Source of the DNA: a virus | Direction: 5' to 3' (one strand) | Virus record (IMG/VR): IMGVR_UViG_3300032116_000102 | Span: 1 to 64,000 of that record | Length of the DNA: 64,000 bases | In this document: in pieces, positions 20,942 through 24,962 of the stretch | How positions within the stretch are numbered: the stretch's first letter is position 1 | Layout of the letters: each line of letters begins with the position of its first letter | Made by a program: the position numbers and the translations under genes | Notes under the pieces: model-generated | The model's input: the letters and a program-made list of their open reading frames with translations, nothing else | Told to the model about the DNA's origin: nothing | The model's database searches: none

Positions 20942-22648
20942 ATGCATTTCCAACTTCCCTCCAACCTCCAACAAGAACTCCTGGCTTATGATCCAAAGCT
21001 CAAGGCTTTGGTTAAGCAGGATGACAACAAGAAGCCTGCTAAGAAAGCTAAGTATCCCCTTGGCAACATCCCGCATCTCATCCCTGAAGACATCGTGCGC
21101 TCCAGCTACCAACAGGATGCAATCAACTACATCAACTCACAGCTAGCACCAGGGCGCTTTCGTTTGTTTACCAAGCTTGTGGACGTAGCAAGTTCACAAG
21201 CACGCACTGTACCTATTGCTGTTATTTATCACTTCGAGCAATGCTGGTACGCAGCATGGCTTCCACAGAAAGGCGAAGACTATGTCTATGGCTACGCCTA
21301 CGCATTCAAGAACACCTCAGCTGCTGCTAAGCAAGTTCCAAACAGCATCTGGAACAGCAAAGAACAGTGCACTGAACACACCATCGGTCGTGGTGCACAG
21401 GTCTTTACCTACTCAAGAACAGTAACTAAGCAAGACATTATCAACGGCAAGGACGGTCGCAACTGGCGTGCGATGGGTATAGCTAGCTACTACCAGAAGA
21501 CATGCGATATCAATGAAGCAATCAACTCGTTTGATTCTGCATTGATGGAAACCATTCCTACATGGAGTGACTGTCGTTCTATGTTTGATCGCTTGCGTTG
21601 CAACAACATTGTTGATGCACTTGATATGCCTTCTTTCTTTAGCAAGCCTATTGCCGATAAGACTAAGTATGAACTCACGATTGATAACTTGATTGCAACA
21701 TCTAAGTTACTAAAGAATGACTATGGTTATTCTTCTTACGGTACATGTTTAACCAAGACTGAAGCAATCATTACTACTCCGTATATTAAGAAGCAGCTTC
21801 AAGCAATGCTTGATCGTTCAACTGCTGAGTACAGCAACCCAGAGAATACACAACGGAAGGCTATCAAGTATGGCTTCAAGGAATTTGAGCAGACCTGTAA
21901 TTCTATTGAATTCATTATTCGTATCTGGCCTGATTGCCCTATTGACCACTACCGTACTTACTTCAATGAACTACGTTGCATCAACTTAAACAACCTGAGG
22001 TATGACGAACGTCTTGTCGAATGGCTACGCACCAACATGTCTGTTGCATCGTTCTTCAACATGCTGCGTAAGTTCAATGAGGCAGAACCTACCTCTCATC
22101 GCAGTTCATACAGTGACTATGATTACCACGTCAAATCATTCTTTGAAATGAATGACACTTTCTCCATGATCATGCGCATCCTGGAGAACGACAAACAAAT
22201 CGAGGCACCTAAGCGCTGGCGCATGCCTGACTTCCATGACTACGTGCAAGCCGAAGCATGGAAGGTAACCAACCGCAAGGAATCACTGCACCAGGATTTG
22301 TTCCCTACTCCGATCAAGGTCAACGTAGACGGCAGTGACTGGACATTCTTCCAGCCTGTCGACACACACCAGCTGGCACAGTGGGGACAAGCAGTCCGTA
22401 ACTGTGTGGGTTCTGCAGGACGCTATGCAGATGACATCAAGAAACGCAAGCACTTCATTGTGCTCTGCATGATTGATGGCAAGCCCACCTTCACCATCCA
22501 ACTGGATGTATCCATGGGTGTCATGAACGTCGTACAGATTGCTGGCGTAGCGAACCAGCGCCTGTCTGTTGACCAACATGAGCAGTACTCCACTGCCTTC
22601 AAGCAAGCCTTGCAATCTCGTGAATCTGAGCTAAGCTCTAAGAGCTGA
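20942..22648 (+). CDS. PcfJ-like domain protein
   Basis: C-terminal FHDYV...LAQWGQAVRNCVGS...FTIQL...VQIAGVAN. Confidence 0.7.
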   Translation: MHFQLPSNLQQELLAYDPKLKALVKQDDNKKPAKKAKYPLGNIPHLIPEDIVRSSYQQDAINYINSQLAPGRFRLFTKLVDVASSQARTVPIAVIYHFEQCWYAAWLPQKGEDYVYGYAYAFKNTSAAAKQVPNSIWNSKEQCTEHTIGRGAQVFTYSRTVTKQDIINGKDGRNWRAMGIASYYQKTCDINEAINSFDSALMETIPTWSDCRSMFDRLRCNNIVDALDMPSFFSKPIADKTKYELTIDNLIATSKLLKNDYGYSSYGTCLTKTEAIITTPYIKKQLQAMLDRSTAEYSNPENTQRKAIKYGFKEFEQTCNSIEFIIRIWPDCPIDHYRTYFNELRCINLNNLRYDERLVEWLRTNMSVASFFNMLRKFNEAEPTSHRSSYSDYDYHVKSFFEMNDTFSMIMRILENDKQIEAPKRWRMPDFHDYVQAEAWKVTNRKESLHQDLFPTPIKVNVDGSDWTFFQPVDTHQLAQWGQAVRNCVGSAGRYADDIKKRKHFIVLCMIDGKPTFTIQLDVSMGVMNVVQIAGVANQRLSVDQHEQYSTAFKQALQSRESELSSKS

Positions 22649-22698
22649 AGCCACAGCAGGGGCATCCTATCCTCGTAAATGGGATGCCTCTTTAACTC

Positions 22699-22917
22699 AT
22701 GTCTGATTACACCGACGAACAACTCCTTGCCATGGCCATGGCAAACATTGGTGAGTACATCACAGATAACTCACCTCAATACATCCTGATCGAAGACGAT
22801 CCTCGTAATGAGGATGATTACGACACATGGAGTTACGGTACTGAACCGTTACCTCATGATCACACTTGGCACTCCACATCGATTGATGTAGAGGTAAGCC
22901 CAAGTCAGGCCGACTAG
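22699..22917 (+). CDS. Small acidic protein
   Basis: ORF track. Confidence 0.55.
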   Translation: MSDYTDEQLLAMAMANIGEYITDNSPQYILIEDDPRNEDDYDTWSYGTEPLPHDHTWHSTSIDVEVSPSQAD

Positions 22918-22936
22918 TCCAACGGCAGAGACAAGC
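22908..22936 (+). pseudogene. Orphan 5' fragment of tRNA-Leu (acceptor 5' strand plus D arm)
   Basis: GGCCGACTAGTCCAACGGCAGAGACAAGC parallels the tRNA 5' end at 23306-23336; compensatory D stem GTC/GAC vs GCC/GGC. Confidence 0.7.
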
Positions 22937-23323
22937 ATGAAACTCTATGGTCCATACACTCGCAAAGATGGCAGACAACATGTCATTCTTTACGAGAACG
23001 GCAAACGCAAAACAGTAAGCTATCCCAAGTATTTACTTGAGACAAAGCTTGGTCGATCTCTTTTGCCTCATGAAACCTGCGATCACATTGATGGAGATCC
23101 TTTAAACAATTCTTTAGATAACTTGCAGATGCTATCCAGATCGGATAACGTACGCAAGCACGCAGCTCTTTCACCTGCAGAGCTGGGGACTTTCACTTGT
23201 CCTATTTGTTTGTGTTCATTTACCAAACGAATGCATAGCACTAGGCACAATCGAAAGCAAGGAAAACGTGGACCTTATTGTTCACGTTCATGCGCAGGTA
23301 AAGCTGGCCGACTAGCCCAATAG
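22937..23323 (+). CDS. HNH homing endonuclease
   Basis: CDHIDGDPLNNSLDNLQMLSRSDNVRKH; C-terminal CPIC...YCSRSC Zn finger. Confidence 0.85.
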   Translation: MKLYGPYTRKDGRQHVILYENGKRKTVSYPKYLLETKLGRSLLPHETCDHIDGDPLNNSLDNLQMLSRSDNVRKHAALSPAELGTFTCPICLCSFTKRMHSTRHNRKQGKRGPYCSRSCAGKAGRLAQ

Positions 23324-23383
23324 GAAGCAGGCAAGTGACTTAAAATCACTCCAGTCCCGGTTCGAATCCGGGGTCGGCTACCA
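23306..23383 (+). tRNA. trnL: tRNA-Leu(TAA), CCA encoded, short variable loop
   Basis: Acceptor GGCCGAC/GTCGGCT, anticodon arm AGTGA-CTTAAAA-TCACT, T arm CCCGG-TTCGAAT-CCGGG, ACCA end. Confidence 0.9.
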
Positions 23384-23412
23384 ACTCAACACTCAACACT
23401 CAACACAACATC

Positions 23413-23775
23413 ATGCAACTCTTTGCAGCCTTCAAGCATCTCATCCCTGAATTCCACGCTTACTCTGATGAAGAGCAGCGTTACAACCTTGGAGCAACCT
23501 GGACAGCGGCTGACGGCCTTAAGGACTATTACAACCTCGAACTACGGTACGTTCATAACTCAGAGCGTCTTGCCCTCAACGGCGATCCCCAGCCTGATGG
23601 CAGCTGGAAATATGTGGAACCCTCCGGCCGTGTCCATACCATGTCGGCAGAGCGAGCCAAGATGTTCATGGAACAAACCCATGCCCATGCCACTATCATG
23701 TGCGGCATGCTGGATCGCCTCAAAGAATCAGGATTGATGGACCAGGTGGTAGACACCAACGCCCAACCTGCCTAA
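23413..23775 (+). CDS. Hypothetical protein
   Basis: ORF track; (CTCAACA)x3 leader. Confidence 0.65.
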   Translation: MQLFAAFKHLIPEFHAYSDEEQRYNLGATWTAADGLKDYYNLELRYVHNSERLALNGDPQPDGSWKYVEPSGRVHTMSAERAKMFMEQTHAHATIMCGMLDRLKESGLMDQVVDTNAQPA

Positions 23776-23793
23776 GATCACAGCGGAATGTTC

Positions 23794-23819
23794 GGCCCCT
23801 GCGCAAGCGGGGGTCTTTT
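23794..23819 (+). terminator. Intrinsic terminator
   Basis: GGCCCCTGC-GCAA-GCGGGGGTC-TTTT. Confidence 0.65.
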
Positions 23820-23823
23820 CTTC

Positions 23824-24147
23824 ATGATCTCCAAATCAATTATCTATCACGATGTAACCGAACTCATTGCTGATTGCATACCAGACAAAGCATGGCCTGC
23901 AGTACGTCATGAAATCATTCAGCAAATGCTAGACAACATGCCGTCAGATGTCATGATTCAATTGACTGGAAGACCTGATGCATTTGATACTGCTGAGCAA
24001 TTGCTCCAACAGTTTTATATGAATGAACCAGGTCACAAACTGATACAAGATTCATTTGATCTTGTTGGCAAAGAAGAAACTGCATTCATTCTTGATTCAC
24101 TGAACCTCACATCATCTGATGGCGTTTCAGAAACAGATCCTTCCTGA
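23824..24147 (+). CDS. Hypothetical protein
   Basis: ORF track, start moved past the terminator. Confidence 0.55.
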   Translation: MISKSIIYHDVTELIADCIPDKAWPAVRHEIIQQMLDNMPSDVMIQLTGRPDAFDTAEQLLQQFYMNEPGHKLIQDSFDLVGKEETAFILDSLNLTSSDGVSETDPS

Positions 24148-24469
24148 CTGTCCACAATGTAATCAACCTGGATTACGTGTCATCGAATCCAGGAAGACAC
24201 ACCACAGTACACGCCGCCGCAAGGCATGTGAGTGCTGTGACTACCGCCTCACAACGCATGAAGTATCTGCTGACTTTTACAACGAAGCACAGCAGAACTT
24301 GATCTTGGTCTCTAAGCTTTATGCGCTGCTGGGTACTGGTTCTTTGCCACAAGAAACCATGGCAATCAAATGCAATGACTGCACTCACAACCAAGGGGGT
24401 GCATGTGCATTTGATTTCCCTGAATACGACACTGCTCAATCATTCGACTGCAATCACTATGTCAACTAA
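24119..24469 (+). CDS. NrdR-like zinc-ribbon protein
   Basis: CPQC...RVIESR...RRRKACECCDYRLTTHE matches the NrdR N-terminal ribbon; no ATP cone. Confidence 0.65.
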   Translation: MAFQKQILPDCPQCNQPGLRVIESRKTHHSTRRRKACECCDYRLTTHEVSADFYNEAQQNLILVSKLYALLGTGSLPQETMAIKCNDCTHNQGGACAFDFPEYDTAQSFDCNHYVN

Positions 24470-24758
24470 ACGTCAATTCACTTACACCGTTGGTGATCGC
24501 GTAGCAGAACGCCCCAAGGCTCATGGCATTTTTGCTGTTCGCAATGAAGTCAAAGAACGTATTGCTCAATACCGTACACAAAGGTATGGTCACGTTCTAA
24601 ACATTGTTGAGAAACCAAATAGCCTTGGTCGCAAACAAAAGTTCTTAGTGATCCAGTGGGATCACCTGTCATCACCAACAGAACACGCTACGATGCGTAT
24701 CTGTCCAGCATCAGAACTCCAGCGTCTGATGAAGGAAGTCATTGTTCCAGGGGAATGA
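24459..24758 (+). CDS. Hypothetical protein
   Basis: MSTKRQFTYTVGDRVAERP... Confidence 0.6.
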   Translation: MSTKRQFTYTVGDRVAERPKAHGIFAVRNEVKERIAQYRTQRYGHVLNIVEKPNSLGRKQKFLVIQWDHLSSPTEHATMRICPASELQRLMKEVIVPGE

Positions 24759-24962
24759 CATGGATCATCGCACAGATATGATTATGCGAGCTGTTGTAAC
24801 TTCCATTGCAATCCTTGGATTTCTGCTTCTCACCTATGCAATTGTTGAGAGCAATTCTGAACCTGTAGAAAAGTTTAAAGTTGTAGATAAATACAAGAAT
24901 TGCAACGTAGTCAGATACACTGATCCCAGTAATCAATGGCACTACCTACTGCACTGCGGTCT

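Follow-up and report, generated by a model that had tools for sequence, protein, structure and literature searches.

A free-standing HNH homing-endonuclease element probably occupies a phage gene for transfer RNA (tRNA)-Leu(UAA), for which it would supply a replacement 5' part. The element lies in the 64,000-nucleotide (nt) stretch of DNA analyzed here (hereafter the window), namely positions 1 to 64,000 of the virus record IMGVR_UViG_3300032116_000102, which is metagenome-derived, 85.6 kilobases (kb) long in full, and rated complete. The nearest cultured relative of the window phage is the freshwater Synechococcus phage S-EIVl. Between two conserved open reading frames (ORFs) of 72 and 120 amino acids (aa), the window holds a 29-nt tRNA 5' fragment (hereafter the orphan), a 128-aa HNH ORF, and an intact 78-nt tRNA-Leu(UAA), and the following features are distinguished:

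22908-22936, + strand: orphan, positions 1-29 of the resident short tRNA-Leu(UAA), T11-A24 allele (from the sequence and a match to the related locus L068)
22937-23336, + strand: inserted mobile segment, 400 nt (from the occupied locus L179 versus the empty locus L003)
22937-23323, + strand: HNH homing-endonuclease gene, 128 aa (from Pfam HNH_3 and phrog_14913)
23306-23383, + strand: intact tRNA-Leu(UAA), 78 nt (from ARAGORN and the Rfam tRNA model)
23337-23383, + strand: tRNA positions 30-76, read as the resident-derived 3' part, or "3' exon" (it varies with the backbone)

The ATG of the HNH ORF (22937) directly abuts the end of the orphan (22936). At its other end, the ORF overlaps the intact tRNA by 18 nt; the last six codons, which end in GRLAQ and the stop, are at the same time the start of the tRNA, and the stop codon TAG (23321-23323) lies inside the D loop. 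An earlier note on this DNA had described both of these contacts, i.e., an orphan tRNA 5' fragment at 22908-22936 that ends exactly at the HNH ATG and an intact tRNA that starts at 23306 inside the HNH ORF, with the GRLAQ codons and a TAG in the D loop. The coordinates of the former were confirmed in the sequence, and the latter was reproduced by ARAGORN and by translation of the ORF. In terms of content, the mobile segment is made up of the HNH ORF and a new tRNA 5' part of 31 nt, which corresponds to standard positions 1-29 plus two extra bases in the D loop. ARAGORN called the intact gene as tRNA-Leu(taa) at 23306-23383, and the Rfam tRNA model matched it with 51.6 bits against a gathering score of 29. 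Its UAA anticodon and its discriminator A73 before an encoded CCA are features of a bacterial-type tRNA-Leu, while the long variable arm of class II is absent and a class-I-like variable loop of 5 nt is found in its place. In the anticodon stem, positions 23336 and 23348 both differ from another occupied allele (L051), and the two changes compensate each other.

Empty alleles of the locus were searched among 48 IMG/VR relatives (L003-L050), which were found via the downstream 120-aa ORF. A tRNA-Leu(UAA) was present at the locus in 43 of the 48, and this HNH gene in none of them; where HNH-free relatives have the tRNA but lack another insert, 16-30 nt separate the tRNA end from the downstream gene. 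The tRNAs at the locus can be categorized into two structural classes, namely a form of 76-79 nt with a 5-nt variable loop and the canonical class II form of 86-87 nt. Five of the HNH-free relatives (L003, L005, L008, L033, and L035) share the acceptor stem of the window's tRNA, and their 76-nt tRNA is of the orphan type through position 29 and exactly as the window's tRNA from position 30 on. S-EIVl has neither the tRNA nor the HNH gene between the two conserved ORFs and was hence unusable as an empty allele. L179 and L003 form a near-isogenic pair of an occupied and an empty allele, respectively; their left-hand match covers 1218 nt at 98.3% identity, and their right-hand match covers 1149 nt at 97.7%. 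The former extends through tRNA position 29 and the latter already begins at tRNA position 1, the overlap being a 29-nt duplication; the two alleles are set apart by exactly one insert of 400 nt, located between tRNA positions 29 and 30.

Occupied alleles were compared for five sequences, which represent four diverged backbones: the window and L051 from IMG/VR, and L175, L177, and L179 from Joint Genome Institute metagenomes. All of them have the same junction between tRNA positions 29 and 30 (hereafter 29/30), and their cassettes are 96-100% identical, whereas the flanks differ by 11-41%. Between L051 and L179, for example, 0 of 476 positions differ across the orphan, the HNH gene, and the tRNA, as against 22 of 200 upstream and 86 of 330 downstream; the identity starts no more than 3 nt from the first base of the orphan and stops no more than 3 nt from the CCA. 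Similarly, the window and L175 differ at 5 of 369 positions in the HNH gene, at 56 of 206 upstream, and at 139 of 341 downstream. Synonymous divergence (dS) between the window and L051 amounts to 0.12 in the HNH gene, 0.75 in the upstream ORF, and 1.07 in the downstream ORF. This contrast of cassette and flanks reads as the signature of a recent, site-specific, homing-like horizontal spread. The new 5' part is identical in all five alleles except for the window's T at its last base, and the 3' part varies with the backbone, with CAAGT, ACAGT, or CCAGT as the variable loop. As the window's orphan and those in the other occupied alleles are different natural alleles, the left crossover lay within or beside the tRNA. 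Judging from these comparisons, the mobile segment is the HNH ORF together with tRNA positions 1-29; it has recently entered several diverged phages at 29/30, with recombination end points in or next to the tRNA.

The orphan of the window is identical at 28 of 29 positions to the start of the intact tRNA in L068 (blastn-short, E-value of 1.7e-8), and its exact D arm was found in 30 IMG/VR contigs from unrelated phages, in 28 of them as part of an intact 76-nt tRNA-Leu(UAA) gene. Because that D arm recurs in intact tRNAs elsewhere, the T11-A24 orphan is a natural target allele and not a product of decay. In the four other occupied alleles, the orphan has C11-G24 and is 29/29 identical to the empty alleles. 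The difference between the old and the new 5' half that is common to all five occupied alleles resides in the D loop, which reads AACGGCAG in the old half versus AATAGGAAGC in the new one. The short form of tRNA(UAA) is in itself widespread in unrelated large phages; one D-arm variant alone accounts for 28 intact copies.

These results bear on three further claims of the earlier note. Its compensatory D-stem difference between the two halves exists in the window, where the orphan has T11/A24, but turned out to be allelic to the resident tRNA, the four other occupied alleles having C11/G24. Its expectation that HNH-free relatives should begin with the orphan-type 5' half was borne out by the five relatives described above. 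Finally, its proposal of an intron-less homing that supplies a replacement 5' half is supported by the 400-nt insert between L179 and L003, the contrast in dS, and the tract without a difference in L051 and L179; indeed, such homing fits because L179 and L003, with flanks of approximately 98% identity, differ by exactly the insert and because the cassette is far less diverged than its flanks. The resistance to cleavage that the note ascribes to the new half is, by contrast, putative.

The 128-aa protein matches Pfam HNH_3 (PF13392) with 30.5 bits against a cut-off of 24.8 (E-value of 2.8e-7) and also phrog_14913, "HNH endonuclease," with an E-value of 1.5e-24. It has an HNN-type active-site motif followed by a Cys-rich, zinc-finger-like part, and H50, N62, and four Cys residues are invariant across 11 HNH homologues. 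The AlphaFold model of the protein has a predicted local distance difference test score (pLDDT) of 89.7, and its best structural match in PDB was I-HmuI (1u3e; probability of 1.00 and E-value of 3.4e-3), with 18% identity over 120 aligned columns and a template modeling score (TM-score) of 0.43. When PDB was searched with the protein sequence, only weak C2H2 zinc-finger-like matches were obtained at residues 65-125. No host protein is in frame with the ORF. The ratio of nonsynonymous to synonymous divergence (dN/dS) between the window and L051 is 0.17 in the HNH gene, which points to a protein that is maintained.

To place the HNH protein in its family, a profile-guided scan of IMG/VR was made, which gave 349 HNH relatives, and the gene context was examined in the best 80. 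Most of these 80 lie within tRNA clusters and on the same strand. The members with more than approximately 40% identity fall into three groups: namely, those directly upstream of tRNA-Leu(UAA) (with gaps of -36 to +13 nt), those directly downstream of it (with gaps of 2-32 nt), and those enclosed by a split tRNA (inserts of 626-690 nt when ARAGORN was run with introns allowed). In L056, an Rfam group I intron match of 64.8 bits, which is above the gathering score, directly follows the HNH ORF, and sub-threshold matches are found right after the ORF in L054, L058, L113, L140, and L144. The intron-borne HNH ORFs (L054, L056, L058, and others) are positioned at the 5' end of the intron, a few nt past the 5' exon of tRNA-Leu(UAA). 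In a tree of 68 proteins, which is unrooted and has many weak forks, the 14 intron-borne forms are all on one side of a branch with 95% support; the window HNH lies opposite to them, within a clade whose genes are all free-standing and directly precede tRNA-Leu(UAA).

Overlaps of the HNH ORF with a tRNA, as well as stranded tRNA halves, recur in the family. The HNH stop codon is at positions 8-10 of the downstream tRNA in L098-L102, L131, L142, L114, L156, L160, and L161 and in the D loop in the window and L051; in L096 (1201-1645), the HNH ORF extends 36 nt into the tRNA, and its stop TAA is the anticodon of the tRNA. 5' orphans ending at tRNA position 27-29 were found at seven loci (the window, L051, L089, L055, L110, L112, and L127). 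In L059, a short tRNA is split between positions 31 and 32, and its two halves flank the HNH gene plus a complete class II tRNA-Leu. In L055, a 5' half is followed by a complete tRNA-Leu and then by the HNH gene, the stop codon of which is the anticodon of the 3' half. In these two more distant relatives, the cassette thus brings a whole tRNA-Leu and not a half. L052 and L068 have 3' tRNA halves only. In L068 (440-700), the HNH gene has decayed to a remnant of 60 nt accompanied by a class II 3' orphan, and a tRNA-Met lies upstream, as is also the case in L096; L096 and L068 look like the intact and the decayed stage of one element.

Homologues with 48-51% identity were also found next to or overlapping tRNA-Leu(UAA) in cultured phages, i.e., Salmonella phages of the PVP-SE1 group and the Klebsiella phage KP2025, at the following loci:

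L180: PQ002170.1, 60955-61497
L181: PP919962.1, 138191-138737
NC_016071.1, 66010-66387

In PQ002170 (a Salmonella phage), the annotated coding sequence overlaps tRNA-Leu by 38 nt, and in PVP-SE1 (NC_016071), there is no annotation under the HNH match. A stretch similar to a tRNA 5' half is seen in L180 just before the HNH ATG, which is a hint only, as just 10-11 nt match the tRNA panel.

Some loci of this survey have layouts of their own. L092 (5660-6560) has a short tRNA-Leu(UAA) with an ORF-less, group I-like insert of approximately 170 nt in the anticodon loop, followed by a free-standing classical HNH gene. In L089 (9696-10100), a 5' orphan that ends at position 29 precedes a copy of the upstream flank, and then come another tRNA-Leu(UAA) in complete form and an ORF whose YTPDF...EIKG motif is PD-(D/E)XK-like; the same break point may be used there by a different type of nuclease. 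L132, a "viral" contig of 9.9 kb, has a complete bacterial ribonuclease P (RNase P) RNA (2296-2639; 304 bits) that follows an HNH homologue at a distance of approximately 700 nt; this is either a cellular fragment or a case of phage-borne rnpB.

How the element would spread can be outlined as follows. In a mixed infection, the HNH enzyme from the occupied genome would cut or nick the tRNA-Leu(UAA) gene of an empty allele close to where the anticodon stem begins, and the break would be repaired from the occupied allele, with the HNH gene and the new 5' part being copied into the recipient. Homology arms would be provided by the tRNA pieces of 29 and 47 nt, together with any flanks that are similar, just as exons provide them for a mobile intron. 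An intact tRNA would then result from the new 5' part and the resident 3' part (23337-23383), and the old 5' part would be stranded upstream as the orphan. Because the interrupted gene would be restored at the DNA level, neither splicing nor a ribozyme would be required. When the donor and recipient tRNAs are of different kinds, as in L059 and L055, the whole donor tRNA would be copied and both recipient halves stranded; when they are alike, as in the window, the right-hand crossover would fall inside the tRNA and only the 5' orphan would be left. The data show the anatomy, the two allele states, the junction common to four backbones, the recent horizontal spread, and the tie of the family to tRNA genes; putative steps are the position of the cut, to which the orphan ends at tRNA positions 27-31 give indirect hints, the role of the tRNA halves as homology arms, and immunity. 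For a putative self-immunity, the sole candidate is the D loop, which is altered in the new half. As for expression, the purine-rich 3' strand of the orphan D stem (GAGG in four alleles and GAGA in the window), which lies 5-9 nt before the ATG, may be a ribosome binding site, and if RNase P cuts at the tRNA's 5' terminus, the HNH message would lose its stop codon.

Several points nonetheless weigh against homing with a replacement 5' part. The intact tRNA is identical to the empty alleles from 8 nt upstream of the 29/30 junction onward, and because it regenerates the sequence across 29/30, immunity would have to come from the D loop or from a feature that the sequence does not reveal. With regard to the D loop, two loci point different ways. 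L062 (8291-8368) is without the HNH gene yet has the HNH-associated D arm, with the AATAGGAAGC loop, combined with the acceptor and T arms of another allele; L096 has an intact HNH of 70% identity that is fused to an orphan-like D arm. L062 may have arisen by loss of the HNH gene via recombination between the repeated halves, or it may be an immune allele that has spread alone. Furthermore, the cleavage of tRNA-Leu genes by the HNH enzyme, as well as its position, is a prediction from sequence, and 29 and 47 nt make for short homology arms. The locus also harbors unrelated small ORFs accompanied by short local duplications, for which reason general illegitimate recombination could yield similar footprints. 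The unrooted tree would, in addition, be compatible with a descent from an intron-borne form.

The most durable alternative takes up some of these points: the HNH protein would be inactive or not specific to tRNA-Leu, and the insert would have arisen once by illegitimate recombination and been passed on among phages in co-infections by ordinary homologous recombination, like other accessory ORFs of the locus. The predicted status of the cleavage agrees with such a passive cassette, and so does the variety of what the same spot holds, i.e., unrelated small ORFs (L009, L011, L030, L033, L036, and L043), another HNH type (L028 and L034), and short local duplications. The tract shared by L051 and L179 is, however, exactly the split tRNA gene, with divergence setting in within 3 nt on both sides, and general recombination in flanks that differ by 11-26% is not expected to stop at the ends of a tRNA. 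HNH relatives are, moreover, found at or in tRNA-Leu(UAA) of unrelated phages, the orphan ends cluster at positions 27-31, and the dN/dS of 0.17 indicates a maintained protein. We therefore regard a passive cassette as unlikely.

Less probable still is the decay of a mobile intron. In this scenario, an HNH-bearing group I intron would have resided in an ancestral tRNA-Leu(UAA), its ribozyme core would have been lost, and the tRNA would have been rescued by recombination with an intact copy, which would make the orphan the old 5' exon. Homologous HNH ORFs do start a few nt after the 5' exon in introns of tRNA-Leu(UAA), which resembles the succession of orphan and ATG in the window. The orphan ends at position 29, however, whereas the intron site is between positions 34 and 35; the window HNH belongs to a clade of free-standing genes only, across the branch with 95% support from all 14 intron-borne forms; and the pair of empty and occupied alleles amounts to a clean gain of 400 nt. 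Rfam gave no match to Intron_gpI in 21380-24900 of the window (E-value of 0.01 or below) nor in L051, the tRNA being the only match in the window region. An intron was accordingly dropped as an explanation of the window locus, where Rfam has no group I intron to offer.

A chimeric assembly or a chance likeness of 29 nt to the start of a tRNA, which the metagenomic origin of the record might bring to mind, is ruled out for practical purposes by contigs from several independent freshwater studies that span the orphan-ATG junction with 0-3 differences (X2, 22665-23358; X9, 22869-23335; X12, 22668-23127; and X14, 22849-22961), by four further contigs with the same junction, and by the orphan match with its E-value of 1.7e-8; because independent contigs bridge the junction, the arrangement is real and no assembly artifact. 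Two X14 metagenome contigs join 22933 or 22936 to 23339 or 23337, i.e., in an empty form, with only 27-30 nt on the shorter side; the join of 22936 to 23337 skips 400 nt. They were not counted as an empty allele of the window phage and may stem from other phages that share the short tRNA.

The two conserved neighbors of the locus are as follows:

22699-22917, + strand: upstream 72-aa ORF (from the ORF list; its stop TAG at 22915-22917 is positions 8-10 of the orphan tRNA)
23413-23775, + strand: downstream 120-aa ORF (the conserved right-hand neighbor, which served as the query for relatives)

In more than 40 HNH-free relatives, the homologous upstream ORF stops 10 or 18 nt inside the intact tRNA, with the stop codon at tRNA positions 8-10 in the short tRNA form and 16-18 in the long form. 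An upstream ORF that runs into the tRNA is hence the ancestral state, as its homologue ends inside an intact tRNA in that many relatives without the HNH gene. At least the first 10 nt of the orphan would have a reason to be kept, because the orphan supplies the stop codon of the upstream ORF. Since this stop lies within the tRNA-Leu gene, processing of the tRNA 5' end would cut the message of the upstream ORF ahead of its stop codon. On the downstream side, the spacer between the CCA of the tRNA and the next ATG (23384-23411) is a tandem repeat of CTCAACA with approximately three copies, and relatives have one copy fewer. A scan of 22500-23900 for promoters and terminators gave counts not above those in shuffled sequences.

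Other inserts are also found at the locus. Unrelated small ORFs are inserted between the tRNA and the downstream gene in L009, L011, L030, L033, L036, L043, and L039, and inserts lie ahead of the tRNA in L028, L034, L037, and L038, those of L028 and L034 having a different HNH-like gene of 150-160 aa. Before or after each such insert, the final 30-40 nt of the upstream ORF recur as a degenerate copy, and L039 retains a remnant of the tRNA 3' end (CGGCTACCA). The locus is an insertion hot spot with a repeated boundary sequence.

In our literature search, which was largely without subscription journals, no publication was found on an endonuclease gene that splits a tRNA gene and brings a replacement half, nor on such a replacement in any phage. 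The nearest published principle that we found would be, by analogy, that of the mORF elements of fungal mitochondria, the so-called gene hybrids (atp6 of Allomyces macrogynus; atp6, atp9, cox2, and nad3 of Glomus), in which an endonuclease ORF brings a foreign C-terminal end of the gene and the native end remains (PMC3630166). Both arrangements have an endonuclease ORF, a replacement gene end, and a native end left as a duplicate, with no intron or intein. The mORF elements concern protein-coding mitochondrial genes, replace the 3' (C-terminal) end, often in frame, and encode LAGLIDADG or GIY-YIG enzymes, whereas the window element concerns a phage tRNA gene, replaces the 5' part, encodes an HNH enzyme, and has an ORF that overlaps the RNA gene.

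Among phages, free-standing homing endonucleases and their "intronless homing" have been reviewed for the T-even group (PMC3984707), and SegB of T4 recognizes a T-loop motif of tRNA and drives the inheritance of the tRNA region (PMC2330249). The window element resembles SegB as a free-standing endonuclease gene within a phage tRNA region, outside any intron or intein. SegB is, however, a GIY-YIG enzyme encoded between genes; it splits no tRNA and carries no replacement part, and an overlap of ORF and tRNA is not described for it. Unlike intergenic genes of the Seg and Mob type in general, the window insert interrupts its target tRNA at 29/30 and duplicates the 5' part. In the case of I-HmuI, the HNH enzyme of a phage group I intron, the likeness consists in the best structural match and the same HNN-type motif, but the window has no ribozyme, and its gene is restored by a duplication of DNA and not by splicing of RNA. 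Relatives of the window HNH are nonetheless themselves intron-encoded, in introns of tRNA-Leu(UAA).

Integrating phages and islands insert into tRNA genes, with a replacement tRNA end in the phage attachment site (attP). As in those elements, the interrupted tRNA of the window is restored with the element's own copy of the displaced part. The integrating elements, however, rely on recombinases of the tyrosine or serine type, it is usually the 3' end that they replace, and they insert reversibly as a whole; no recombinase takes part in the case described here. In collaborative homing, furthermore, a free-standing endonuclease targets the insertion site of an intron (reviewed in PMC3984707). The likeness lies in one enzyme family that is found both free-standing beside the target and in the introns of that target, and the layout of L092 is similar; in the window, by contrast, no intron protects the target.

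In terms of significance, homing endonuclease genes have been considered to depend on an intron, an intein, or an intergenic site if they are to sit harmlessly in essential DNA. Here, the HNH gene sits in the middle of an RNA gene and would compensate with a replacement part, which amounts to an intron-free occupation of an essential RNA gene. What appears to be new at this locus is the replacement of only the 5' part, the near-isogenic pair of empty and occupied alleles, and the recent transfers, which delimit the mobile segment with single-nucleotide precision. This natural before/after pair and the several recent transfers allow direct tests of the target site, of the homology arms, and of what determines immunity, and the cultured Salmonella and Klebsiella phages with HNH-tRNA-Leu pairs are tractable models.

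As for the family, a 2014 review states that all phage introns observed until then were in protein-coding genes, despite the many tRNA genes of phages (PMC3984707); the intron-borne relatives in tRNA-Leu(UAA) run against that statement. That one enzyme family occurs both free-standing and within tRNA-Leu(UAA) group I introns is relevant to the formation of mobile introns, and the finding at the window locus also offers an explanation for the structurally different tRNA-Leu(UAA) genes at one phage locus. A broader and only tentative reading, which we hold to be possible without favoring it, would join these observations: a large phage HNH family would "ride" tRNA genes, with the fused tRNA or half acting as both a repair patch and an immunity determinant, RNase P as a brake, a turnover of tRNA-Leu classes as a consequence, and the family as a source or sink of ORF-bearing group I introns in phage tRNA genes. 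If this is true, each transcript would yield either the enzyme or the tRNA, which would be a built-in brake on the nuclease, and the family would drive the turnover between short and long (class II) tRNA-Leu(UAA) at one locus.

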